This document shows, one piece after another, positions 3,007-45,448 of a DNA stretch of 64,000 nt. The DNA lies in assembly GCA_041661275.1 (NCBI GenBank), contig JBAZUU010000004.1, positions 71,480 through 135,479 of the forward strand, read 5' to 3'. The stretch's first letter is position 1; every line of letters begins with the position of its first letter. Below the pieces are notes generated by a model. The model did not search any database, was not told the origin of the DNA, and saw only the letters and a list, made by a program, of their open reading frames with translations. A program made the position numbers and the translations under genes. This DNA is from Parcubacteria group bacterium (GTDB lineage Bacteria; Patescibacteriota; Minisyncoccia; Moranbacterales; UBA2206).

Positions 3007-3774
3007 TTAAAAAATCTTTTTTTTGATAACAAACTTATTTTTTAGCATACTCCCAAGAGTCGTTTTTATTGAATCTGTTATGTCGGAAAAATAATATACG
3101 TCATTTGCGTTTAATTTCCTTGGCATATTGGCAACTTCTTTAGCTATTTCACGGGCAGAACTTATCAGGTTTACTTTCGGATCGAGGATATCCAAAATTA
3201 TTTCTTCCAAGTAGGGATAGTGCGTGCAACCCAAAACCAAAACATCGACGCTGTCCTTTATATTGTCGAGATATTCCTTAGCGATCAATTTTGTTGCGGC
3301 ATGCTGGATCAATCCTTCTTCCACTAGCGGAACAAATAGCGGACAGGCCTTTTGTATCACTTCTATTTTGGAATTAACTTTTTTTATTTTGTCTCGATAA
3401 ATATTGCTCCTAATCGTTCCTGTTGTTCCAATTATTCCAACTTTATAATTTTTATTTTTTTCGGCTTCTAGCTTTATTTTTTCGATGACAGGATCGATTA
3501 CGTTATAAAATTTTATTTGGGTATATTTATTTTTTAAATGTTCGCTGGCCAGAGCTGAGGCAGTATTGCAGGCAATGATTATTTCTTTTATGCCTTGCTC
3601 GATAAAAAACCGACTTATTTCGTCGGCGTAACTAATTATCGTATCAGCGCTTTTATTTCCCCATGGATAGCGGGCGGTGTCGCCAAAATACATGACGGGA
3701 AATTTCGGATTTATCTTTTTCAATTCCGAAACAACAGAAAGCCCGCCGATACCGCTGTCAAAAATACCAATCAT
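3007..3774 (-). CDS. murI: Glutamate racemase MurI
   Basis: MIGIFDSGIGGLSVV... signature and both conserved Cys regions (IIACNTAS, VLGCTHYP). The start is trimmed to MIGIF because the longer ORF would overlap the tRNA. Confidence 0.85.
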   Translation of the reverse strand: MIGIFDSGIGGLSVVSELKKINPKFPVMYFGDTARYPWGNKSADTIISYADEISRFFIEQGIKEIIIACNTASALASEHLKNKYTQIKFYNVIDPVIEKIKLEAEKNKNYKVGIIGTTGTIRSNIYRDKIKKVNSKIEVIQKACPLFVPLVEEGLIQHAATKLIAKEYLDNIKDSVDVLVLGCTHYPYLEEIILDILDPKVNLISSAREIAKEVANMPRKLNANDVYYFSDITDSIKTTLGSMLKNKFVIKKKIF

Positions 3775-3795
3775 TTGTTTGAAGATTTTAATTTG

Positions 3796-3869
3796 TGGGC
3801 GTATCTGGACTCGAACCAGAGACCTCGTCATTATCAGTGACGCGCTCTAACCAACTGAGCTATACGCCC
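3796..3869 (-). tRNA. tRNA-Ile (anticodon GAT)
   Basis: rc reads gggcgta/tagctcagttggttagagc/gcgtca-ctgataa-tgacg/aggtc/tctggttcgagtccaga/tacgccc. Cloverleaf is complete. No CCA is encoded. Confidence 0.85.
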
Positions 3870-3874
3870 GAATG

Positions 3875-3947
3875 TGGACTGTGCCGGACTCGAACCGGCC
3901 GCCTCCTGCGTGCAAAGCAGGCGCTCTACCAGATGAGCTAACAGCCC
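3875..3947 (-). tRNA. tRNA-Ala (anticodon TGC) with G3:U70
   Basis: rc reads gggctgt ta gctcatctggtagagc g cctgc tttgcac gcagg aggcg gccggttcgagtccggc acagtcc a. The G3:U70 Ala identity pair is present. Confidence 0.85.
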
Positions 3948-7539: not shown

Positions 7540-8109
7540 ATGAAAATAGTCATTGGGACAGCGGGGGAGATAGCCAGTGGGAAAGAAACTGTGGCACGAT
7601 ATATCATCAAAAAATACGGCGGGTCTTTGTATAGATTTTCCGATTCTCTTCGCGAAATCCTGACCAGGATGCATCTGCCTGCCGACAGATCAAATTATCA
7701 CAAGATTTCCATGGCTTTGCGAGAGTATTTTGGTCAGGATGCACTTTCGCGGATTGTCTATAACGACATTAAAAAAAGCAAAAATAAAATAATTATTCTT
7801 GACGGGATTAGAAGGAAATCAGATACTGAATATTTGAAAGATATTAAAGGGTTTAAACTTATCTTCATTGACGCCAAGATAGAAACAAGACTAGTTAGAT
7901 TAAAAGCAAGAAAAGAAAAGCCCGATGATAAGAATAAGAGCATTGCTAAGTTTAAAAAAGAGCATGAGTCAGAAGTGGAAATAAAAATAAGAAAACTCAA
8001 GAAAATAGCTGATTTTGTGGTTGATAATAATGGTGAAAAAACGAAGCTTTTCCAGCAAATTGATCAAATCATTGATAGGATTTCCAAGAAAAAGAGTAAT
8101 TTGGTATAA
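7540..8109 (+). CDS. P-loop kinase-like protein, paralog 2 (degenerate Walker A GEIASGKET)
   Basis: Same architecture as 6887..7453 (MHLPADRSNY ~ LHLPVTRDNL; DGIRRK; RLVRLKARK; DNNGEKT). Tandem duplicate. Confidence 0.55.
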   Translation: MKIVIGTAGEIASGKETVARYIIKKYGGSLYRFSDSLREILTRMHLPADRSNYHKISMALREYFGQDALSRIVYNDIKKSKNKIIILDGIRRKSDTEYLKDIKGFKLIFIDAKIETRLVRLKARKEKPDDKNKSIAKFKKEHESEVEIKIRKLKKIADFVVDNNGEKTKLFQQIDQIIDRISKKKSNLV

Positions 8110-8183
8110 TTAGTTTACATTGCGCAACTGGGGATAATTTCAGTTACGCATTATTTTATCTCTAAACACTAACAACAACAAAA

Positions 8184-8705
8184 ATGGCAAAACCGTCCAA
8201 TGCAAAAAAAACCAGACTGAATTGGGATGAATTATTTATGAACATGGCTGTTCTGGCCGCTGAAAGAACCGCCTGTAAATTTGTGAGAGCGGGAGCAGTG
8301 TACGTTGATCACAATCATCGGGTAATTTCCTTGGGTTACAATGGGCCGACTGAAGGGGACTATCATTGCATCGATGTCGGATGCGCCAAAGTGGACGGAG
8401 ATCCGAAAACCAAAAAACTGAAACGATGTCGCGGAGCGCATGCTGAAATGAATGGCATCGCTAACGCGGTTGACACTACCCGACTCCGTGGCGCCACACT
8501 TTATTCTGCTACTTTTCCGTGTTATGACTGTATGAAAGCGCTTAATAACGCGGGAATAAAAGAAATTGTCTACTACACCGAATATAAAAGGATCCAGACC
8601 GGCGGAGAGAAAAAGGAAGAAGAGAATGAGGCTTGGGAGCTGGCCAAAAAACGAAAAATAAAAGTACGGAAATATAAAGGAGAGCTTAATCAAAAAATAA
8701 GTTAA
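8184..8705 (+). CDS. dCMP deaminase (ComEB/CDA family)
   Basis: HAEMNGIANA zinc-binding motif with PCYDC. dCMP deaminase length and motif spacing. Confidence 0.85.
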   Translation: MAKPSNAKKTRLNWDELFMNMAVLAAERTACKFVRAGAVYVDHNHRVISLGYNGPTEGDYHCIDVGCAKVDGDPKTKKLKRCRGAHAEMNGIANAVDTTRLRGATLYSATFPCYDCMKALNNAGIKEIVYYTEYKRIQTGGEKKEEENEAWELAKKRKIKVRKYKGELNQKIS

Positions 8706-8723
8706 AAAATCTTTTATAAAACT

Positions 8724-9722
8724 ATGGACAAAAAACATCCGGAATATCAATATTTAGACCTGATGCAAGACATTTTGGATAATGGATCGGATAAAAAACT
8801 GTTTTTCACTCCTGAAGTTCTGAAAGATTATGAAGAAAAAGGCCAAGAACCGCCGGTCATTCGAAGCGTCTTTGGGCGGCAGGCCAGATTTGATATGACC
8901 CAGGGCTTTCCCTTACTTACGACAAAAAAAGTTTTTTGGAAAGGAATTCTTCATGAGCTGCTCTGGTTTTTAAGTGGAAGTTCCAACATAAAATATTTAG
9001 TGGATAATAATGTCCATATTTGGGATGAGTGGGCTTATAAGAGATACAGAAAAAGCGCTATTGAAAAAAATGAGCCCTATATGACACAGGAGGAATTTAT
9101 TTCTAAGATAAAAAATGAACCAGCGGACAGCGAATTTGTGACCAATTGGGGCGACTTGATTGTTGTTTATGGAAAAATGTGGCGTCGTTGGCCAGCTAGC
9201 GATGGTCGAGAAATTGACCAATTAGGCTGGGTAATTCAAGGACTCAAGGACAAACCATTTCGAAAATCGTACGTAGTTTCTGGATGGAATCCTGATTTTA
9301 TCTACGCTATGGCCTCAAGGGGTAATGCCAATGAAGTCCCACCGTTTTGTCATACAACTTTTCAATTCGCAGTTACCGAAGGCAATAAGTTAAATCTTGG
9401 TCTATATCAAAGGAGCGCTGATTTATTTTTAGGTGTCCCGTTTAACATTGCCAGTTACGCTCTTCTTCTTCAAATGGTAGCCCAAGTAACTGGCCTTGAA
9501 GTAGGAGAATTTGTGCATACTTTCGGTGATGTGCATTTGTATTCCAATCACTATGATCAAGTAAGAGAGCAACTTTCCAGAGAACCGAAACCATTGCCGA
9601 CGATAAAAATTAAGCCTGATATAAAAAATATTGATGACTTTAAGTTTGAGGACTTTGAATTGATAAATTATGATCCGCATCCAGCCATCAAGGCGGAGTT
9701 GGCGAATATTGGAGGATTCTAA
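8724..9722 (+). CDS. thyA: Thymidylate synthase ThyA (with ~50-aa insertion as in Lactobacillus-type TS)
   Basis: Near-collinear with E. coli ThyA: [12 protein letters not shown], catalytic [41 protein letters not shown]. Confidence 0.9.
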
Positions 9723-9731
9723 TGATATTAT

Positions 9732-10232
9732 ATGAAAGTTATTTTGATGATGGCTATTACCATGGACGGGAAGATCGCGCGAGATAGCGATCATTTTCCT
9801 GATTGGACGAGTAGGGAAGACAAAAAACTTTTTGCGCGTGTTTCCAAGGAATATGGCGTGGTTATGATGGGAGAAAGGACTTTCAAAACTTTTCCGTCAC
9901 CACTTCCAAATCGCCTAAATGTAGTTTTTACACTGGAGAAAAATCCTCCGGAAACAGAGGGTGTGAAGTGGGTTTCTGGCGAGCCGGAAAAAGTTTTGAA
10001 AGAATTGGAACAAATGGGATATAAGTCAGCTATCCTTGGAGGGGGAGCCTATCTCAACACCTTGTTCTTGAAAAAAGGCCTGATTGACGAAATAATTGTG
10101 ACAGTTGAGCCAAAAATATTCGGCGCCGGACTTTCGCTTTTTTCGGAAGAAGTGGGTGTGAATCTGAAATTGATAGAAACGGAAAAGATAAATGAAGATT
10201 CTATCGTACTAAAATATAAAGTTATTAAATAA
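9732..10232 (+). CDS. Dihydrofolate reductase family protein (RibD C-terminal-domain type)
   Basis: MKVILMMAITMDGKIA... and GGGAYLNTLFLKKGLIDEIIVTVEPKIFG match the RibD_C/DHFR-like fold. Located immediately after thyA. Confidence 0.6.
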   Translation: MKVILMMAITMDGKIARDSDHFPDWTSREDKKLFARVSKEYGVVMMGERTFKTFPSPLPNRLNVVFTLEKNPPETEGVKWVSGEPEKVLKELEQMGYKSAILGGGAYLNTLFLKKGLIDEIIVTVEPKIFGAGLSLFSEEVGVNLKLIETEKINEDSIVLKYKVIK

Positions 10233-35309: not shown

Positions 35310-35336
35310 TTTTTCCGAATGCGAAAGGGGAGCGTC

Positions 35337-35474
35337 ATGAGACAATTTATTTCTGTGTGTGAATGGATTGACACTGCTCCGGAAGAGGTGTTTGTCGCGT
35401 TTCTTCTGGTTGCGACGTTGGTTATTATAGTCATCAACGATCTCCTCCGAAAAAAGGGGAGATCGGAAGTCTGA
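35337..35474 (+). CDS. Hypothetical small single-TM peptide (45 aa); a paralogous unit follows at ~35613
   Basis: SD aaggggag before the ATG. The upstream context atgcgaaaggggagcg is duplicated ahead of a second hydrophobic peptide ORF (MGLLLLGVWITGLGLAFGL...). Confidence 0.3.
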   Translation: MRQFISVCEWIDTAPEEVFVAFLLVATLVIIVINDLLRKKGRSEV

Positions 35475-36075
35475 CAGGGAGGGAGGGGAATGACAGTACT
35501 ATTAATCGCACTCGGTGTTTTTGTCTGGTTTCTCGTCGTTTCCGTGACGCGCCAAACCTTTAAGAAAAACAAAGAGACGGTGAACGTTTTTCCCGTATGC
35601 GAAAGGGGGCGATATGGGATTATTGCTTCTGGGCGTTTGGATAACAGGGTTGGGTCTTGCGTTTGGCCTTTGCCGATGCATGGCTCTCGTATCAATCCGT
35701 CTGGTTGAGGCCGAGGAACGGAGGCGGGGCGTGATCATTTCTTCTTCAGAAGAGCCTGCCGACTAAAGATTTATTTTTTGGCAGAGTATCTTCAAAAGTC
35801 TCTCGTGGAGAAATTTTCTGCGGGAGCTTTTTTTATTTCCCCTTGACAAAAATATAGGGCGGTTTTGGAAGAAATAAAAAATAGAAAAAAATGCGTGTTC
35901 AAGCTTGATTTTTTCTTTTAGACGTGCTATAATGGATATAGAAAGTTAAAGAAGTTGCTCGCGGGAGCCATAACCCTGTAAAGTTCCGCAACGGAACCAC
36001 GGGGCAAGAAACGGGTGTAGGCCCGTTTTAAGTATTTTCTGGGGGAACAATAACCCAGAGTTAATTATTGCCAAA

Positions 36076-36948
36076 ATGAAAAAAAATAATAGGAAAATAA
36101 AAATACTCAAACTATCAGTGGCAGTTGTCATAATGTTTTCATATTTGTCATATCCTGCCCTGGCTAAAGAAATAAATATTGCTAATGTTTTAGAGTTGGT
36201 GAATGAAGCTCGACAAAAAAATGGCGTAGCCACCTTGGATGAAAATCAAAAATTGGACAAGATCGCGGCGGACAAATTGGAAGACATGGTGAAGAATAAT
36301 TATTTTGCCCACACGTCTCCCAAGGGAGTCAATCCGTGGTTCTGGTATGAAAAAAATAGTTATGACTATAAGTACGCGGGAGAAAATCTGGCTATCAATT
36401 TTATGCGCGCCGAAGATCAGCAGGACGCCTGGATGAAAAGTCCGACTCACCGAAAAAATATTTTGAATCCCAACTATCAGGAAATTGGAGTTGCGGTCGG
36501 AGCGGGGGAGGTCAATGGACAGTTGGGAATAATTGCCGTTCAGGAATTTGGAACCTTGGCCAGCGCCGCCGGAGACGTTTCAAAAGAAGGGGAAAACTTT
36601 TCCGCGCACAAGGATGAGGGATTGGTCAAGGACGGCGTGAAGATAACCCCGCAAGTTTTGTCGGTGAAAGACTTTACCGAAGAGAAATTGAAAAATGAAA
36701 TTCCAGGAACCAAAAGCAATTCCAGTTGGACGAGAAATATATTGGACAAGTTCAACGCCAATAGTCCTGCTATGTATAACTACATGAGCCTTCTCGCCGT
36801 CTTCTTAATGCTTGCTTCAATCGTTCTGGCCTCAGCTTCATTTCTCACAGTAGCCGCGCATGAGATTATGATTTGCGATGAGTTGCGTCGAAAAGTGTAT
36901 GCCGACCACGAAGTATTAATAAAACATGACCGGATTTTGATATCGTAG
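36076..36948 (+). CDS. CAP/SCP/PR-1-domain secreted protein with N-terminal signal/TM and C-terminal TM segment
   Basis: VNEARQKNGVATLDENQKLDKIAADKLEDMVKNNYFAHTSP...GENLAINF...WMKSPTHRKNILNPNYQEIGVAV matches PF00188. Confidence 0.75.
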   Translation: MKKNNRKIKILKLSVAVVIMFSYLSYPALAKEINIANVLELVNEARQKNGVATLDENQKLDKIAADKLEDMVKNNYFAHTSPKGVNPWFWYEKNSYDYKYAGENLAINFMRAEDQQDAWMKSPTHRKNILNPNYQEIGVAVGAGEVNGQLGIIAVQEFGTLASAAGDVSKEGENFSAHKDEGLVKDGVKITPQVLSVKDFTEEKLKNEIPGTKSNSSWTRNILDKFNANSPAMYNYMSLLAVFLMLASIVLASASFLTVAAHEIMICDELRRKVYADHEVLIKHDRILIS

Positions 36949-38357: not shown

Positions 38358-39404
38358 ATGAAAAAAATCGTAGTGTCTGGTCTTGCTCTGGTGTTTCTTT
38401 TGGGCGCGTCGGGTGCGGCAGCGGGAGTAGAAAAAAATGGAATAGATTTTTCCAGGCCTATCAAAGTTGATGACCTGAAAATCGAAAAGAAGTTGATTCT
38501 TTCCAAAGAGCAACGAGCTTTAGGAGAAAAAGGTTCAAAAGGCAAGCCTACTCCACCGCCGGTGACAGTTGAAGGAGCGACCGGAGTTTTGGGAACGCCT
38601 CTGGCGCTGGGCGCCAAAAAATATGCCATTTTGGTCGGACTGAGCAATTATGCGGGAACCGCTAATGATTTATGCATCGATTCTCTAAAAACAACAGCCA
38701 ACTACCCAAATAGTTTATGCGCTGATGCCGATGCGGCTAATATGGAACTGACACTGAAAGATAAATATGGATATAATGATACAAATTCGACTATCTGGCG
38801 TTTCAGTGATGCTGATGCCAATTTTGCTGCGATCCAATCAGCCAAAGATTATATTTTAGCCAATGCCAAAGCTGGAGACGAAGTAGTTTTCTTTTTCAGC
38901 GGACATTCAGCCACTTCCAACAGAAATCTTTTCAAAAATGGCGACCGGTTGAATGTAGGTCTGGCTCTGTATAATCTGCCATATGATTCGCGAGAAGTCA
39001 TTTGGGACGGCTATCTCCAGAATTGGTTTGGCAGTTTAGCCACTAATCGCATTGTGTTTATTTTTGACACTTGCCATGCCGGTGGGCTGGCCAGTTATCT
39101 GCAAGGAACCGGTCGGGAAGTGGTGATGTCCAGCGCCGAAAATCAGTATTCCTATACATATTATTTGGGAGGGGAAAGCAATATGCTTGGAGAAGGATCG
39201 TTTGCTCACTTTTTTAACGTAGATGGGATGTATAATGGCTTGGCAGATGGTTATAACATGTTTGCGCCTAACGGAATTGACGGTAAAGTTGCGGTGGAAG
39301 AAGCCTATAGCTATGCTAAAAAATTCGTGCCCATCGATACTTCCAATCATCAGATTCCTGCGCTCAATGACAAGTTTACTGATGATTTAATGCTTGGTTA
39401 TTAA
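38358..39404 (+). CDS. Secreted caspase-family (peptidase C14, orthocaspase-like) protein
   Basis: Signal peptide. YAILVGLSNYAG ... GDEVVFFFSGHS (catalytic His) ... IVFIFDTCHAGG (catalytic Cys). Confidence 0.7.
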   Translation: MKKIVVSGLALVFLLGASGAAAGVEKNGIDFSRPIKVDDLKIEKKLILSKEQRALGEKGSKGKPTPPPVTVEGATGVLGTPLALGAKKYAILVGLSNYAGTANDLCIDSLKTTANYPNSLCADADAANMELTLKDKYGYNDTNSTIWRFSDADANFAAIQSAKDYILANAKAGDEVVFFFSGHSATSNRNLFKNGDRLNVGLALYNLPYDSREVIWDGYLQNWFGSLATNRIVFIFDTCHAGGLASYLQGTGREVVMSSAENQYSYTYYLGGESNMLGEGSFAHFFNVDGMYNGLADGYNMFAPNGIDGKVAVEEAYSYAKKFVPIDTSNHQIPALNDKFTDDLMLGY

Positions 39405-39515
39405 GAAAATAAAGTGGGAAGGGATAAAGGTCGAGGGTGTTAGTAACTGTTCAACATCTTTTCTTTGATATATACTTCTTTGCAGAGCTTTGTTAAAACA
39501 AAAAAACACAAAACT

Positions 39516-39851
39516 ATGCAAAGAAAAATGTATCCAAGCGATGTCACTCGCGAGCAATTTGAAAAAATCAGACCGATTCTCGATACGGCCTGCAAGAAAA
39601 CAAGGCCGAGAACCATCGACCAGTATGACGTGTTCTGCGCCCTGCTGTACCTGCTGAAATCCGGCTGCCAATGGCGAATGTTGCCATCGGATTTTCCCAA
39701 ATGGCGCACCGTCCATCATTACTTTTCTCTCTGGAGCCGGAAGGAAAACAAAAACACCCCCAGCGTATTGGAGGAGGTCTTAAAAAAAATTGGTCAGCGA
39801 CGAACGCTTGAGAAATGGGAGATTATGCAAAACGAGCTTGGGTATCGTTGA
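39516..39851 (+). CDS. IS5-family transposase OrfA (DUF4096 N-terminal domain)
   Basis: YDVFCALLYLLKSGCQWRMLPSDFPKWRTVHHYF is the hallmark of IS5/IS427 OrfA. Confidence 0.8.
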   Translation: MQRKMYPSDVTREQFEKIRPILDTACKKTRPRTIDQYDVFCALLYLLKSGCQWRMLPSDFPKWRTVHHYFSLWSRKENKNTPSVLEEVLKKIGQRRTLEKWEIMQNELGYR

Positions 39852-40311
39852 TGCCCAAAGCGTGAAAAATACTGAATCAGCGAGACAGAAAGGCTATGAC
39901 GCAGGCAAAAAAGTATCCGGTATTAAGCGGCATATTGTCGTGGACACCAATGGATTACCGCACGCAGTTACCATTACGACAGCTGATGTGACTGACAGAG
40001 ATGGAGCCATTAAGGCTTTTGAGACAAACAAAAAACACCTGTCGAAGGTGAAGAAAATACTGGCCGACGGCGGTTACACAGGCAAACCGTTTGCCGAAAA
40101 AGTGAAGAAGATTTTGAAAGCGGAAACAGAAATTGCTAAAAGAAATGAATTGCATACATTCAAAGTTATTCCGAAAAGATGGGTGGTGGAAAGAAGTTTC
40201 TCTTGGTTGGAAAAATGTCGGAGATTATGGAAAAATTGCGAAAGAAAACTTAATTCAAGTTTACAAATGATGGTTCTGTGTTTCGTGAGAGTTTTGTTGA
40301 AAAGATGTTGA
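39790..40311 (+). CDS. IS5-family transposase OrfB (DDE domain), expressed by programmed frameshift from OrfA
   Basis: GIVDAQSVKNTESA...GIKRHIVVDTNGLPHAV...ADGGYTG...VVERSFSWLEKCRRL is the DDE_Tnp_1 signature. Confidence 0.8.
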   Translation: MVSDERLRNGRLCKTSLGIVDAQSVKNTESARQKGYDAGKKVSGIKRHIVVDTNGLPHAVTITTADVTDRDGAIKAFETNKKHLSKVKKILADGGYTGKPFAEKVKKILKAETEIAKRNELHTFKVIPKRWVVERSFSWLEKCRRLWKNCERKLNSSLQMMVLCFVRVLLKRC

Positions 40312-40370
40312 ACAGTTACTTAGGCTACCCAAAATGCCTGAACTAATTAATAATTACTAGAATAATATAC

Positions 40371-40871
40371 ATGAAAAAAATACTTATTGGAGGAAGTCTT
40401 GGTATTTTCGCATTTTTTGCCTTCTTTGCAATGCCGGCTTTTGCGGCAGGCAGATTTGACCAATATGGCTATAATGATACTGCCAGAATTTTTAACGGCA
40501 CAGGAGAGTCCTGGTCTTTGGCAAAAGGATTGCCTGCTGATTATCTTGGAGCGTATGCCAAAGATAAACTAGTTATGAAATGGAACGCTGAATGGGATAG
40601 GGGAAATGCAGAGGGCTGGTCCAAGGGACCATACAATGCCTGGGAGAATAATGAATGGAATGGAAAAGTGAAAGGTGGTTCCGGCGCTGTTTGGCATTAT
40701 AAAATAGTCTGGGTCGGCGATTATGTTGCAAATCCAAGCCTGATACCTGATGGAGCATACGGAATATGGGGACAATTCGCGACTATTATGGATCAGGGGC
40801 ATGACCCAAGTTATGGGCCGGGACATTTTTGGTTCGCACATGCCAGTCCAACCGGGTACGGGGCTTACTAA
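40371..40871 (+). CDS. Secreted Trp/Gly-rich hypothetical protein (166 aa)
   Basis: Signal peptide MKKILIGGSLGIFAFFAFFAMPAFA. The upstream region is paralogous to that of 41398. Confidence 0.5.
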   Translation: MKKILIGGSLGIFAFFAFFAMPAFAAGRFDQYGYNDTARIFNGTGESWSLAKGLPADYLGAYAKDKLVMKWNAEWDRGNAEGWSKGPYNAWENNEWNGKVKGGSGAVWHYKIVWVGDYVANPSLIPDGAYGIWGQFATIMDQGHDPSYGPGHFWFAHASPTGYGAY

Positions 40872-41397: not shown

Positions 41398-42000
41398 ATG
41401 AAAAAAATTATATTAAGCTTAGCGGCCATTGTTGCTGTCGGAGCTGTGGCAGGATATGGATCTTATGCTCTGTGGAGTGATACTGAAACCAGTACTGGAA
41501 ACAGTATTACAGCTGACAAGTTGGATTTGGTATTAGCAAGTGTCCCCCTGACTATTGCTAATGTTCATCCCGGGCAAACAGGAAGCAGTGCTGCTATGAC
41601 AGCTAAAAATGATAGCAATACTGTCAATGGAACCTTGACTTATACAGTCACTGGATTAGTTGATAATGAAAATGGTTGCGTGGAGCCAGAATCTAACCCA
41701 GCAGAAGGAAATGACCTTACTTGTGGTACGCCCGGAGCGGGGCTAGGAGAACTTTCGGGTCACGTAAAGGTAGGTTTTATTGCTGATTTAAACGGAGATG
41801 GCACATATGAAACTACTATTCCCGAGGCGTATCTGAATACTCTTAGCGGTACTACTACCATAGGAACTGTGGCCGCTGGCGTTACTGCCAGTGTTCAAAT
41901 GACATATACCGTAGATAATTCAGTTACTCCTTTTGCAGACAATATCTTTATGACTGACAGCTCTACATTTGATGTTAATTTCAACTTAACTCAGATATAG
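41398..42000 (+). CDS. TasA/camelysin-like protein with SipW-cognate class signal peptide
   Basis: N-terminus ...GYGSYALWSDTETSTGNSITADKLDL matches the TIGR04088 pattern (xYAxFSDxExSxxNxFxAxxLDL). ~200 aa. Immediately upstream of sipW. Confidence 0.6.
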   Translation: MKKIILSLAAIVAVGAVAGYGSYALWSDTETSTGNSITADKLDLVLASVPLTIANVHPGQTGSSAAMTAKNDSNTVNGTLTYTVTGLVDNENGCVEPESNPAEGNDLTCGTPGAGLGELSGHVKVGFIADLNGDGTYETTIPEAYLNTLSGTTTIGTVAAGVTASVQMTYTVDNSVTPFADNIFMTDSSTFDVNFNLTQI

Positions 42001-42097
42001 TCCTGGTTATTTTTGACGCGGGAAGATTTTCTCGCGTCTGCTTGGGAAACTCAATGACGACTGTGGGTCGGTTTGGGTTTTCAAAGCGGACTAAATT

Positions 42098-42625
42098 ATG
42101 AAAAAAGCGTACTATATCACCCAAAACATATTTGTCACTCTGGCCATTGCCATTGTCCTGTTTCTTTTGGCTGCCAGATTTTTGCCAAAATTCCATTACG
42201 GGCTATATATTATCCAGTCCGGATCGATGCAGCCGACTTTGAAAACAGGAAGTATCGTAGTCGACAAAAAGCAGGCGGATTATCAAAAAGGCGAAATCAT
42301 TACTTTTGCCCGAAGCAAAAAAGAGATCATCACCCACAGAATCACAGAAGTGACAGGCGAAGGAGAAAATATATTATACAAAACCAAGGGCGATGCCAAT
42401 AATACGGATGATTTGTTCCTGGCCAGGAAAAATTTGGTTTTGGGAAAAGTAATATTCGCGGTTCCGTATTTCGGATATATTATCGCTTTTGTCAAAACGA
42501 AAACAGGACTGGTTCTGCTAATTATCATTCCAGCCCTTTGGTTTATAGTAGAAGAGGCGTTGAAAGTCAAAAAAACAATCAGAGAGAAAAAAAATAAAAC
42601 TAAAGGTAATGAACAGGAGGAATAA
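42098..42625 (+). CDS. sipW: Signal peptidase I, SipW (archaeal/ER) type
   Basis: IQSGSMQPTL (catalytic Ser), ITHRITEV (catalytic His region), KTKGDANNTDD and the C-terminal TM helix are collinear with B. subtilis SipW. Confidence 0.75.
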   Translation: MKKAYYITQNIFVTLAIAIVLFLLAARFLPKFHYGLYIIQSGSMQPTLKTGSIVVDKKQADYQKGEIITFARSKKEIITHRITEVTGEGENILYKTKGDANNTDDLFLARKNLVLGKVIFAVPYFGYIIAFVKTKTGLVLLIIIPALWFIVEEALKVKKTIREKKNKTKGNEQEE

Positions 42626-44552
42626 AAAAAATAAATATGCGGAATTAATAACGGTTGTTTGCGCGATGTTGTTGGCTGTTGTTTCTCCTGTTTTTGTTTA
42701 TGCTGACTATCAGGATAACGAAACGACTAGTGGCAATTCTTTTTCCGCTTCCAGCTTGAATGCGGAAGTTTCTTCCACTCAATCGGGACTGGAAGTGGCT
42801 TTGACGGCTGCTGGAATGGTTCCGGGAGACAGCGTCAGCCGGGACGCCAATATTGATAATGTCGGAGGTGAAAATTTCAAATATAAAGTGGAATTTGAAA
42901 AAGTGAGCGGAAGCGACGCTCTTTGCGACGCGCTCCAACTGGAAGCAAAACAGGGCGGCGCGACGGTATATAATGACGATCTCCTTGATTTTACTGTGAG
43001 CGGCGGGACTTTGAATTCAGGAAATGATGACGATTGGGATTTTACTGTTACCTTGCCGACAGGGTCGCCCAATAGTTTGGAGGGATTGAGTTGCAATTTT
43101 AAGTTCGTCTTTACCGCCTGGCAGACAGATTTTGCGAATCCAACCGCGGGCTGGGTGGACGAAGAAGAACTCGATGGCAACAATATCACGACTGGTGATT
43201 GGGATCCGGTGATAACGGGCGTAGCAAATACTAATCCGCTGGATACCAAAGGCCAGACCAACGATGAGATGGCTAAAGTTAGTGTTTCCTGGAGCACCAG
43301 CGAAAACACCACTTCCAACGTGGTTTATGACACAGTCACTCGCGCGGATTGCACCGGATACGCGAACCATAATACTCCTGTTGACGCAGTGGCTGACAAT
43401 ACTAACCATGAAGTGACACTTAAAAATCTTTTGGCCGGCACTACATATCATTATCGCGCCGTGAGCCGCGACGTGGGCGGAAATCAGGTTTGCTCCAGTG
43501 AATATTCATTCACCATCCCTGCTTCCACGACAGATATTCCGTCATCAGACATAGTTCTCAATGAATTTGTGCCCCATCCTTCTGGTTCGGAAAGTGGCGA
43601 ATGGGTGGAATTATATAACAAAAGCGGATCGGATGTCGGAGTCAATGGCTGGTATATTTATGATTCTACGGATTCCGGTGGCGTAATGATAAGTTCGGCC
43701 AATACTGATACGGGCGGAACGACTGTTTCAGCCGGTGGTTATCTCGTTGTTTATCTCAATAAATCCTATCTTAATAATAGTGGTGGCGATACCGTGAAAC
43801 TGTATAGCGGCTTATTCGGTGTCGGAACATTGATTGACAGCCACAGCTATACCGGAACAATTCCCGAAGGCAAATCTTTTGCCAGGTTTCCTGATGGTGT
43901 CGGGGTTTGGATAGATCCGGATGTAACGCCTGGAGAAAAAAATGAATTGAAGCCGGAAGAAAAAGAGGCGTTTCTGACGCAAACAGCAAACGCTTGCTTT
44001 GACGGTAAAATGCGAAAAGAAAGCAAGGAAAATATCTGCCAGGGAGAATTTTTGAAATATCTGGGGATGGTAAACAAGAAAAAAGACATTGAAATGACCG
44101 ATGCAATGTGGGAAAAAATGAAAACCGTCAGCCCGGCAGTGGAAACAATGAAGGAAAAAGAAGCTACAGATGTGAAAACAGAACCCGCCTCGACTCGCGA
44201 AGACGCTACGTCGACGCGAGGCGGGAAAACAACGCCGGCAGGTGGAAAAGCGGATATAAAAAAAGAAGAGGTAGCCGCTCCCTTGGAAGAAAAGGATAAA
44301 AAAGTGGAAGATGCGCCTGCTGTTGAGGTTGCTCCGGCGCCGAAAGAGGAAATAAAACCGGAAGAAAAAACTATTCCGGAAGAAAAGAAAGTGGAAGTGA
44401 AGGAAGTGCCAAAGGAAGATCCTAAAGTCGAAGAAAAGCCTAAAGAAGAACCTAAAATCGAGGAAAAACCCAAAGAAGAAGCGCCAAAAGTGGACGCTGT
44501 TGTTTCGGAAGTTTTTGATTATTTTAAAATAAATTATATTAATTTATGTTAG
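42609..44552 (+). CDS. Large SipW-cognate-signal surface protein with Fn3-like and lamin-tail (LTD) domains and a K/E/P-rich repetitive tail
   Basis: N-terminus VYADYQDNETTSGNSFSASSLNAEV. Fn3-like block KVSVSWSTSENTTSNVVYDT...TTYHYRAVSRD. LTD block LNEFVPHPSGSESGEWVELYNKSGSDVGVNGWYIYD...GGYLVVY. Tail PKEEPKIEEKPKEE... Confidence 0.6.
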   Translation: MNRRNKKNKYAELITVVCAMLLAVVSPVFVYADYQDNETTSGNSFSASSLNAEVSSTQSGLEVALTAAGMVPGDSVSRDANIDNVGGENFKYKVEFEKVSGSDALCDALQLEAKQGGATVYNDDLLDFTVSGGTLNSGNDDDWDFTVTLPTGSPNSLEGLSCNFKFVFTAWQTDFANPTAGWVDEEELDGNNITTGDWDPVITGVANTNPLDTKGQTNDEMAKVSVSWSTSENTTSNVVYDTVTRADCTGYANHNTPVDAVADNTNHEVTLKNLLAGTTYHYRAVSRDVGGNQVCSSEYSFTIPASTTDIPSSDIVLNEFVPHPSGSESGEWVELYNKSGSDVGVNGWYIYDSTDSGGVMISSANTDTGGTTVSAGGYLVVYLNKSYLNNSGGDTVKLYSGLFGVGTLIDSHSYTGTIPEGKSFARFPDGVGVWIDPDVTPGEKNELKPEEKEAFLTQTANACFDGKMRKESKENICQGEFLKYLGMVNKKKDIEMTDAMWEKMKTVSPAVETMKEKEATDVKTEPASTREDATSTRGGKTTPAGGKADIKKEEVAAPLEEKDKKVEDAPAVEVAPAPKEEIKPEEKTIPEEKKVEVKEVPKEDPKVEEKPKEEPKIEEKPKEEAPKVDAVVSEVFDYFKINYINLC

Positions 44553-45448
44553 GTAGAAAAATAAAAATCATCACATACGCTTTTTTCTTCTCGATTCTTT
44601 TTGGCTTTGCAGGGGCGGCTCAAGCGGCGGTTTCTCTCGATGTCAGCGGAGTGCATGACCATATGTTCAGTGAAGACAATATATATCCGGGATGGACCGA
44701 TAGCCATACGGTGAATGTCAAGAATACCAGTGATGGTTCTGAAGTGATTGATGTTTACGCCACTTTTGATATTACTGATAATTCCGATCTAACCAAAAAA
44801 ATTCATTTGTATGTCATAAGAGAGGCTGACAATAAATATATGCTGGGCGGAGTCGGTGACAGAATAACTTTGGATGAAGCGGATGGTGACAGGATATTTA
44901 TCGATCGATTGGACGCGGGAGAATCGGAAGATTATAAAATAAAACTTCGTTTCGATTCTGACGCCGGCAATGAATATCAGGAGCTTAGTTCTGATTTTGA
45001 CATAGATTTAGGGTTTGAATCAGATGAAGTTCCGGGCGGAGGAACGCCCTTGCCAAAAGTTGTTTCTGGTGAGAAGCCCCCGGAAGAAGTGGCCGGAGTT
45101 TCTACGCCGGAAGAAGGCGCTGAAAATCAGGGGGCGCAATTGGGAGCAGAAACAACTTGTCAGAGCTGGCCGCAATGGATATGGATAGTCGCCATCTTGG
45201 CTTATGCCTTGATACTTCTGAAATACTTGCAGAATAATTATAAAGCCGAAAAAATGGTTTGGAAATTCGGTCTCGTCTGGACTGTTGCGGCTGTCACTTT
45301 CTGGTATTTTAGGGACAAATGTCGGGAATATCAGTGGTTTTTGTATGGTTCAATAATAATTGCTGTTGCTAGCTATTTTATTTATCTCTGGATGCTGAAA
45401 AAGAAAGTGAAAAGCGGAACTTTGCCGGTTGATCATACGCAGGAATAA
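44546..45448 (+). CDS. Secreted beta-rich protein with C-terminal triple-TM anchor (possible second TasA-like/anchor component)
   Basis: Signal peptide followed by a ~180-aa acidic beta-rich domain, then three TM helices. The start overlaps the end of the preceding gene. Confidence 0.45.
   Translation: MLGRKIKIITYAFFFSILFGFAGAAQAAVSLDVSGVHDHMFSEDNIYPGWTDSHTVNVKNTSDGSEVIDVYATFDITDNSDLTKKIHLYVIREADNKYMLGGVGDRITLDEADGDRIFIDRLDAGESEDYKIKLRFDSDAGNEYQELSSDFDIDLGFESDEVPGGGTPLPKVVSGEKPPEEVAGVSTPEEGAENQGAQLGAETTCQSWPQWIWIVAILAYALILLKYLQNNYKAEKMVWKFGLVWTVAAVTFWYFRDKCREYQWFLYGSIIIAVASYFIYLWMLKKKVKSGTLPVDHTQE

Follow-up and report, generated by a model that had tools for sequence, protein, structure and literature searches.

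A predicted exported C14 cysteine peptidase of the orthocaspase type in a Parcubacteria genome: its parts, its neighbours and its possible role

Within 64,000 nucleotides of the genome of a Parcubacteria group bacterium (GenBank assembly GCA_041661275.1, contig JBAZUU010000004.1, positions 71,480 to 135,479 of the forward strand; this whole stretch is called the window below, and its first letter is position 1), a complete open reading frame (ORF) on the + strand at 38358..39404 encodes what is predicted to be the precursor of an exported C14 cysteine peptidase of the orthocaspase type. An earlier account made from the letters and translations alone, here called the sequence-only reading, had singled it out as a caspase-family protease with a secretion signal, lying next to an insertion sequence (IS). 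We describe the gene product and its surroundings, and weigh the role that we favour, general extracellular proteolysis by an exported zymogen, against parts in intracellular defence, in protein sorting, in the maturation of a neighbouring surface assembly and in attack on a partner organism.

The peptidase and its parts

The ORF list confirms the gene as first drawn, with an ATG start and 348 amino acids (aa) before the stop, and the two motifs from which the catalytic dyad had been read lie at aa 178-184 (FFFSGHS) and aa 236-243 (FDTCHAGG). Pfam PF00656 (Peptidase_C14) matches aa 121-244 with 31.8 bits (E=1.5e-7; gathering cut-off 21.4). A phmmer comparison with PDB sequences places His183 on the SGH motif of Arabidopsis metacaspase-4 (AtMC4) and Cys239 on the Cys of its DSCHSGG motif, the residue mutated to Ala in the C139A entry 6w8r, while a profile alignment sets the same pair against His220 and Cys276 of Yca1. 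The sequence-only reading had staked itself on a significant C14 match and an aligned dyad; both were found, so the family assignment stands. Precomputed PF00656 matches are present on most homologues and weak PF01650 (C13) matches on some members of the family; NCBIfam has no match for the window protein. A profile built from 30 homologues 38-82% identical to it (alignment A1) retrieves metacaspases with E-values of 2.5e-20 (AtMC4), 3e-18 (Yca1), 4e-18 (Candida glabrata Mca1), 7e-13 (AtMC9) and ~1e-10 (TbMCA2), and the bacterial protein GSU0716 at 1.6e-5 only. Judged by its residues, the gene encodes a catalytically intact C14B-type peptidase (clan CD) of the metacaspase/orthocaspase branch.

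The p20-like catalytic core occupies aa 88-250 (38619..39107, + strand), with His183 encoded at 38904-38906 and Cys239 at 39072-39074. When conservation is counted over 120 database homologues, His183 is found in all 120 and Cys239 in 119, and the predicted S1-pocket residues are as constant: Asp125 in 120, Ser181 in 120 and Asp237 in 119. Asp125 aligns with Asp25 in the GCxND motif of AtMC4, Ser181 lies within the SGH motif and Asp237 within the DxC motif. The three are the equivalents of Asp95, Ser156 and Asp211 of TbMCA2, which line its proposed S1 pocket (PMC4357240), so that an acidic pocket is present in the window protein; the equivalent of TbMCA2 Cys92 is not clearly aligned, as Cys121 of the window protein is offset by one and is Cys in only 42 of the 120 homologues. 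Since C14B enzymes cleave after basic residues (PMC6426788), these pocket residues make cleavage after Lys or Arg a reasonable prediction for the window enzyme. One member of the family departs from the dyad itself: in an Archaeoglobaceae metagenome-assembled genome (MAG; JAVZNF010000006.1, locus L048) Tyr stands at the position of His183 and the Cys is kept, which gives the protein the look of a pseudo-orthocaspase, a kind of variant not reported from archaea (PMC6426788), although this is a single MAG sequence whose start codon is probably miscalled.

An AlphaFold2 model built on A1 (mean predicted local distance difference test score, pLDDT, 85.6; predicted template modelling score, pTM, 0.87) has the caspase/hemoglobinase fold. 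Among PDB structures Foldseek ranks metacaspases, MALT1 (a paracaspase) and GSU0716 highest and places caspase-1, legumain (4aw9) and asparaginyl ligases (7fa0) lower; the probability is 1.00 for all of these except the ligases. The C-terminal half, aa 251-348 (39108..39401, + strand), is where sequence and model part company. Pfam aligns no more of its profile than positions 21-136 of 233, the profile matches to PDB metacaspases stop at the Cys motif, and the C-terminal 103 aa searched alone against Pfam give no match at E<=10. The Foldseek alignments to metacaspases run over 300-340 columns, however, and so indicate that this half, in which E261, E314 and E315 are conserved among the 120 homologues, completes the modelled caspase fold as a structural p10 equivalent that is unrecognisable as p10 by sequence. 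Operationally, a prokaryotic p20 protein is called a metacaspase if a p10 can be detected in its sequence and an orthocaspase if not (PMC6426788); by this definition the window protein is an orthocaspase, though structurally complete in the model. It also lacks the marks of a type I metacaspase: no p10 is recognisable by Pfam within 66 residues of the p20, including in the search with the C-terminal 103 aa alone, and in place of a Pro-rich or zinc-finger prodomain it has a signal and a Lys-rich pro-region that matches nothing in Pfam.

Clan CD includes some enzymes (GPI8 in family C13, plant asparaginyl ligases, PorU in C25) that cleave a protein at its sorting signal and hand it on to an acceptor; the window protein could in principle work likewise, as a transpeptidase or sorting enzyme of the cell surface rather than a hydrolase. 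The fold that it has in common with legumain and the asparaginyl ligases, the weak C13 matches in some members, its predicted extracellular location and the occasional proximity of surface-fibre genes all point that way. We nevertheless consider this very improbable: in sequence and fold the protein is clearly closer to C14 metacaspases than to C13 or C25, no potential substrate bearing a conserved sorting motif at its C-terminus came to light, and no acceptor system is evident.

Metacaspases of type I carry an allosteric Ca2+ site, and here the window protein stands apart from most of its own family. The Ca2+ ligands of TbMCA2 are Asp173, Asp189, Asp190 and Asp220, conserved in Yca1 (PMC4357240); going by their spacing from the catalytic Cys, they would be Asp236, Asp252, Asp253 and Asp283 of the yeast enzyme, which align by profile with family positions 199, 217, 218 and 246. 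The majority of the 120 homologues carry Asp199 (106), Glu200 (102), Asp217 (118) and Asp246 (102), with Gly at 218. In the window protein and its closest relatives these residues are Asn199, Val200, Asp217, Gly218 and Ser246, so that of the four-Asp site only Asp217 is acidic. The changes at aa 199-200 (38952-38957) and aa 246 (39093-39095) occur together in one subclade of ~9-12 of the 120 homologues. On this alignment two of the three acidic Ca2+-site residues that the family retains are gone from the subclade, a loss that suggests activation independent of Ca2+.

At its N-terminus the protein carries a predicted Sec signal peptide, aa 1-22 (38358..38423, + strand), recognised by hydropathy and by inspection for the -3/-1 rule: an initial MKK, a hydrophobic core, and A20-A21-A22 followed by G23. 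The sequence-only reading had already claimed such a signal, and in MKKIVVSGLALVFLLGASGAAAG its basic n-region, hydrophobic core and A-x-A site can be discerned by these heuristic means. Kyte-Doolittle means reach maxima of 2.42 over 15 aa and 2.98 over 12 aa, with a hydrophobic stretch at aa 4-22, and the signal region is without Cys, hence without a lipobox. At the place of the predicted cleavage site the homologues in A1 share G/V-x-A followed by K, Q or R. Of 119 database homologues 113 begin in a signal-like way, as do 69 of 80 genome-derived loci, and the exceptions look truncated at the 5' end or miscalled at the start. Export through a type I Sec signal with cleavage near A22 is thus a well-supported prediction, albeit a heuristic one.

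Between signal and catalytic core lies a conserved pro-region, aa 23-87 (38424..38618, + strand), marked by Lys44-Lys45 (codon 45 at 38490-38492), K61-G-K-P64 and A74-T-G-x-L-G79. It had first been described as a Lys/Pro-rich linker; the basic, Pro-rich segment exists, as KGSKGKPTPPP at aa 58-68, but it belongs to this conserved region and is not a spacer. Position 45 is Lys in 118 of the 120 homologues and Arg in one, and Lys44 is conserved in 84%. In the K61-G62-K63-P64 motif Gly62 is kept in 92% and position 63 is basic in 85%, while Ala74, Thr75 and Gly76 are conserved at 92-97% and Gly79 at 95%. These features are kept in archaeal, Chloroflexota and Caldisericota relatives, and the pro-region searched alone against Pfam has no match. 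Residues 31-60 are modelled confidently (pLDDT 82-90; a strand at 41-43, a helix at 50-60), which suggests that the pro-region packs on the catalytic domain. In clan CD pro-forms the active site is typically blocked by an N- or C-terminal region, and RgpB puts a prodomain residue into S1 (PMC4357240). Given a near-invariant pro-region Lys in a protease predicted to cut after Lys or Arg, it is natural to suspect that Lys45 takes part in autoinhibition or autoprocessing. Taken together, these findings support the original picture: a caspase-family (C14) protease whose dyad is intact and which has an export signal and a basic, Pro-rich N-terminal region, in a genome of the Parcubacteria, a group of the candidate phyla radiation (CPR).

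Neighbouring genes and the insertion sequence

Upstream, on the + strand at 36076..36948, lies a gene for a secreted protein of the CAP/YkwD family (Pfam CAP, 1.3e-18), and a CAP gene also precedes the caspase gene in the related loci L001, L021 and L024. The closest parallel is L001, a 250-kb contig whose caspase is 66% identical to that of the window: it shares the order arginyl-tRNA synthetase, GT4 glycosyltransferase, isoleucyl-tRNA synthetase, CAP, caspase, with no IS. The guanine-plus-cytosine (GC) content of the locus, 0.39-0.44, is ordinary beside ~0.40 for the window. Where the sequence-only reading had seen a small accessory segment, the gene order kept in the IS-free L001 and the unremarkable composition indicate a conserved backbone, into which the IS came recently and as a bystander, as a discrete intergenic insertion with a target duplication.

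The IS5 assignment itself held. The element spans 39440..40322 (+ strand, ~877 bp) and appears intact, with perfect terminal inverted repeats of 21-22 bp at 39443-39463 and 40299-40319 and TTA at both flanks, a target duplication of the TNA type. Its orfA (~39465-39851) matches DUF4096 and its orfB (39790-40311, in the +1 frame) matches DDE_Tnp_1 (1.3e-31); the NCBIfam model transpos_IS5_3 (NF033580) is split between them, with profile positions 1-89 and 86-257 of 258. A run of eight A lies at ~39783-39790, where the two frames overlap, and the split may reflect programmed or transcriptional slippage, or an inactivating frameshift. The repeats occur only twice in the window (0.01 copies expected), making the IS single-copy there. 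An independent assembly (L090) has it at the same place with the same split between orfA and orfB, so it is no assembly chimera. The IS lies in the spacer that separates the caspase gene from the next one, starting 38 nucleotides past the stop, and is absent from relatives; a functional link to the caspase was rejected on these grounds and on that of its discrete target duplication. It is a recent insertion, irrelevant to the function of the caspase.

If the protease belonged to a system of defence or attack, a constant partner might be sought beside it, and the sequence-only reading had proposed looking for effector or immunity genes. No conserved partner emerged across 89 related loci, and in more distant relatives the contexts of the caspase gene are completely different. 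Pfam and PADLOC find no gasdermin, STAND NTPase/NACHT, TIR or CRISPR partner in the neighbourhood of the window gene, and none recurs in the 89 loci. PADLOC's generic "caspase" model does match the p20 core of the protease (4.6e-10), and no other neighbour matches a defence model. The variable contexts and the lack of defence-model neighbours argue against a gasdermin-, NLR- or CRISPR-type role. An intracellular protease of cell death or anti-phage defence, whether gasdermin-activating, linked to NLR or CHAT proteins or like the orthocaspase MaOC1, with an N-terminus that is hydrophobic by accident, would be in keeping with that PADLOC match and with two relatives whose caspase genes lie beside an Abi/type I restriction-modification/Fic island (L005) or a zeta toxin (L069). 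Such a role is nonetheless scarcely credible given how consistently the signal-like N-terminus recurs across the family and how no such partner does. A candidate gasdermin or defence partner, the 263-aa ORF upstream, was also discarded: it lies on the opposite strand, has only a sub-threshold Cas11d match (E=0.0079), is not conserved in L001 and looks, by inspection, like a multi-pass membrane protein.

Some single relatives have notable neighbours, none of which recurs. In L005 (1-9900) the homologue adjoins an island of AAA_15/Abi_C, KilA-N, type I restriction HsdR and Fic genes, in L069 a zeta-toxin gene lies nearby at 7918-8616, and in L008 a 737-aa secreted protease combining a beta-helix with Peptidase_M10 lies at 7682-9895.

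Downstream of the IS follow five genes, for a Trp-rich secreted protein, a TasA-like protein, a SipW-type signal peptidase, an LTD/fn3 protein and a 300-aa protein. The first (40371-40871; 166 aa with 10 Trp, or 6.0%, 25 Gly and 11 Tyr) has the signal-like N-terminus that had been ascribed to it; it has no match in Pfam, NCBIfam or PADLOC and no relative near other caspase loci, and it resembles a 369-aa secreted protein of L001 in its signal peptide only. The other four, recognised with Pfam and NCBIfam, form a + strand cluster at 41398..45448: a TasA/camelysin-like protein with a SipW-dependent signal peptide (TIGR04088; 41398-42000), the SipW-type signal peptidase (42098-42625), a 647-aa surface protein with LTD and fn3/PurAcPhosph_N domains and a C-terminal tail rich in Lys, Glu and Pro (42609-44552), and the 300-aa protein (44546-45448). 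Among 80 metagenome loci anchored on SipW, LTD occurs in 34 and a protein like the 300-aa one in 19, and the whole has the look of a locus for surface fibres or adhesins that is conserved in the CPR.

This cluster recurs beside the peptidase in other lineages. The order caspase, TasA-like, SipW, LTD is found in L040 (Nealsonbacteria), in L021 (Parcubacteria, with CAP directly upstream) and in L019 (Moraniibacteriota); in L069 and on the P0006 contig the cluster flanks the caspase gene on the opposite side. The protease could accordingly be conceived as a dedicated maturase or remodelling enzyme of the adjacent surface assembly, trimming or releasing the TasA-like or LTD proteins, for example at the LTD tail, which has 27 Lys in its last 147 residues. 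The order is shared by the window, L040, L021 and L019 though their caspases are only 35-41% identical, and five of ~45 CPR loci have the arrangement, besides the window and P0006, which exceeds the expectation for genomes with one or two such clusters each (binomial p 0.0008-0.07, according to the background rate assumed). That assumed rate and the phylogenetic relatedness of the loci limit what the statistic can carry, and clustering of genes for secreted proteins could explain the pattern. In the reverse direction, a caspase homologue was found in only one of the 26 SipW-anchored metagenome loci of at least 8 kb (of the 80), which is no more than chance and makes the linkage facultative. 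The cluster is, moreover, absent from most caspase loci, including L001 and all archaeal and Chloroflexota members. The linkage may be mere co-location of genes for secreted proteins or a functional tie peculiar to certain lineages, and is a lead rather than a finding; we hold a maturase role unlikely, if still deserving of attention.

Distribution and comparison with known systems

The identical protein is already in NCBI as MFA6048018.1 and MFA6485260.1, each named "MAG: caspase family protein [Parcubacteria group bacterium]". A pattern-plus-tblastn scan with one genome per GTDB species found relatives of the exported family in at least 363 species-representative genomes of bacteria and archaea, nearly all of the relatives with this signal and pro-region. 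Among the best 80 of these 363, 35 carry Patescibacteria labels (Parcubacteria, Moraniibacteriota, Saccharibacteria, Nealsonbacteria, Doudnabacteria), 12 belong to Chloroflexota/Dehalococcoidia and four to Caldisericota, 15 are archaeal (Archaeoglobales, Thermococcus, Bathyarchaeia, Nitrososphaeria, Brockarchaeota and others) and 14 are others or unlabelled. Three MAGs labelled "uncultured Bdellovibrionales" (L013, L017 and L023) have caspases that are 39-41% identical to the window protein, cluster with those of Moraniibacteriota and have the same long insert; on the L013 contig a protein is named "polysaccharide deacetylase" in NCBI. The three are probably mislabelled bins, with a propagated misannotation besides.

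Such a spread bears on the idea, raised by the sequence-only reading beside a part in envelope remodelling, that the enzyme is a host-directed effector, cleaving surface proteins of a bacterial or archaeal partner for attachment or for the release of nutrients. The organism is a Parcubacterium by its NCBI name, CPR bacteria are described, in the accounts on which we draw, as widely regarded as symbionts with biosynthetic deficits, and the protein is predicted to be extracellular. Yet the same combination of signal and pro-region is found in Dehalococcoidia, Caldisericota, Thermococcus, Archaeoglobales and Bathyarchaeia, which to our knowledge are not regarded as episymbionts, so a role specific to episymbiosis is not required. 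Furthermore, no immunity, adhesin or secretion-system gene is linked to the caspase gene, which sits in a conserved housekeeping backbone and not in an effector island. We think it quite unlikely that the enzyme is such an effector.

The census also corrects the impression, given by the sequence-only reading, that secreted orthocaspases are uncommon. An N-terminal helix, probably a signal peptide, joined to a metacaspase domain was already catalogued in 46 of 671 prokaryotic caspase homologues, with discussion of an extracellular localisation (Asplund-Samuelsson et al. 2012, PMC3501461). Taken with the at least 363 genomes counted here, that figure makes the claim of rarity overstated: secreted forms are a known and well-populated minority. 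The layout of the window protein is the same as in that survey, which however predates CPR genomes and describes neither the conserved pro-region nor the cross-domain subfamily. Our searches of the literature on archaeal orthocaspases and extracellular metacaspase propeptides turned up no description of the exported subfamily or its pro-region, and those on caspases or metacaspases of Patescibacteria and the CPR returned irrelevant or passing mentions only.

Set beside characterised enzymes, the window protein is a composite. With the orthocaspases, whose prototype is MaOC1 of Microcystis aeruginosa, it has in common a prokaryotic origin, an intact His-Cys dyad in a p20-like domain, an acidic pocket and the lack of a sequence-detectable p10. 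MaOC1, which is reported to cleave a type II antitoxin (PMC7935541), is however intracellular, whereas the window protein has a conserved Sec signal, a Lys-bearing pro-region and a modelled p10-equivalent half. The best profile and fold matches are to metacaspases of known structure (Yca1, 4f6o; C. glabrata, 7qp0; TbMCA2, 4af8; AtMC4, 6w8s; AtMC9, 8a53). The equivalents of the S1 residues of TbMCA2 are conserved, and the window protein has an N-terminal region that may, like that of TbMCA2 (PMC4357240), gate the active site. The window protein differs from these metacaspases in the p10 and prodomain features discussed above, in being exported (by prediction) rather than cytosolic, and in its Ca2+ site, where three of the four Asp remain in the family and one in the window protein.

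Gingipains (C25) and clostripain (C11) are the nearest functional analogues as far as predictions go, with a signal peptide, a prodomain that blocks the active site, a basic P1 preference and a part in extracellular degradation (PMC4357240), and the same anoxic habitats and lineages are rich in them (PMC6752024). The window protein, in contrast, belongs to C14 by Pfam, profile and fold, is much smaller and lacks both Ig-like and C-terminal sorting domains. GSU0716 of Geobacter sulfurreducens (PDB 3bij) offers a bacterial single-domain caspase fold (Foldseek E=2e-7), but in sequence the window family is much closer to eukaryotic metacaspases.

Proposed function

The scheme that we infer extends from export and the cleavage site, through zymogen behaviour, autocatalytic maturation, P1 specificity and Ca2+ independence, to, above all, the physiological role. 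The signal peptide (aa 1-22) would carry the protein across the cytoplasmic membrane of a monoderm CPR cell and be removed by signal peptidase I. The pro-region (aa 23-87) would then pack on the catalytic domain and maintain latency, with Lys45, or Lys61/63, occupying the S1 pocket or being cut there in an autocatalytic maturation. Once mature, the enzyme would use His183 and Cys239 together with the acidic S1 residues (Asp125, Asp237, Ser181) to cut after Lys or Arg outside the cell, and this general extracellular proteolysis would supply peptides to an organism with little biosynthetic capacity. The subclade of the window has probably dispensed with the metacaspase Ca2+ switch. As a whole, an exported, Lys/Arg-specific C14B zymogen for general extracellular proteolysis is the explanation that we regard as best, at somewhat better than an even chance.

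Peptide acquisition through general extracellular proteolysis is its favoured but weakest link. It is suggested by a gene that stands alone, by the occurrence of the family in presumed non-episymbiont lineages and by analogy with the clan CD peptidases of sediments: exported Arg-specific peptidases of this clan (C25) dominate the peptidase genes with signal peptides in anoxic sediment and match the activities measured there (PMC6752024).

Several points weigh against this interpretation. The nutritional role draws on analogy and on the lack of any partner gene, and a more specialised task is hinted at by the repeated occurrence of the caspase beside the TasA-like/SipW/LTD cluster across several lineages of the CPR. 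The N-terminus may act as an uncleaved signal anchor, which would tether the enzyme to the membrane, and the mapping of Ca2+ ligands from TbMCA2 through Yca1 to the window family goes by spacing to the catalytic Cys. A bolder version of the story can be imagined, in which an undescribed, cross-domain family of exported metacaspase-like enzymes has a propeptide whose Lys45 plugs, or is cut in, its own S1 pocket, the CPR have recruited the enzyme to the SipW/TasA-like/LTD locus for structures of host contact, and the window subclade works without the Ca2+ switch; in its entirety this is speculative, and we would be surprised to see it borne out.

The annotation of the window protein as a caspase homologue is correct but routine, already carried by its NCBI label, and exported prokaryotic caspase homologues have been catalogued since 2012. 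Four points are mildly new: the pro-region is conserved, the exported subfamily has spread across domains, one subclade has lost Ca2+-site residues, and the gene has a facultative SipW/TasA-like/LTD neighbourhood. The exported form emerges as a coherent, widely distributed subfamily with a conserved pro-region of its own, and being common to the CPR, to archaea of sediment and subsurface and to Chloroflexota, it may have a share in the extracellular peptidase activity directed at Arg and Lys that has been measured in anoxic sediments. Members that keep and members that have lost the metacaspase Ca2+-site residues offer a natural comparison. A note of caution follows for annotation: prokaryotic caspase homologues do not become genes of cell death or immunity, or effectors, merely because an IS adjoins them.

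A few minor features of the window complete the description. A promoter scan gave 14 sites, not above the expectation from shuffled sequence (10.9 +/- 3.4), and no terminator-like site was found on the + strand between the caspase stop and the IS. An Rfam scan of the whole window at gathering thresholds returned two tRNAs only, nothing near the caspase gene and no rRNA: the two are a tandem tRNA-Ile(GAT) and tRNA-Ala(TGC) on the - strand at 3795-3947, a pair typical of 16S-23S spacers, and a mechanically called ORF of 274 aa (3007-3831, - strand) overlaps the tRNA-Ile. Between the isoleucyl-tRNA synthetase and CAP genes, ~770 bp (35310-36075; GC slightly raised, at 0.43) hold only short, overlapping mechanical ORFs with no Rfam match, and the equivalent place in L001 has an 80-aa, Cys-rich ORF of zinc-ribbon-like appearance.

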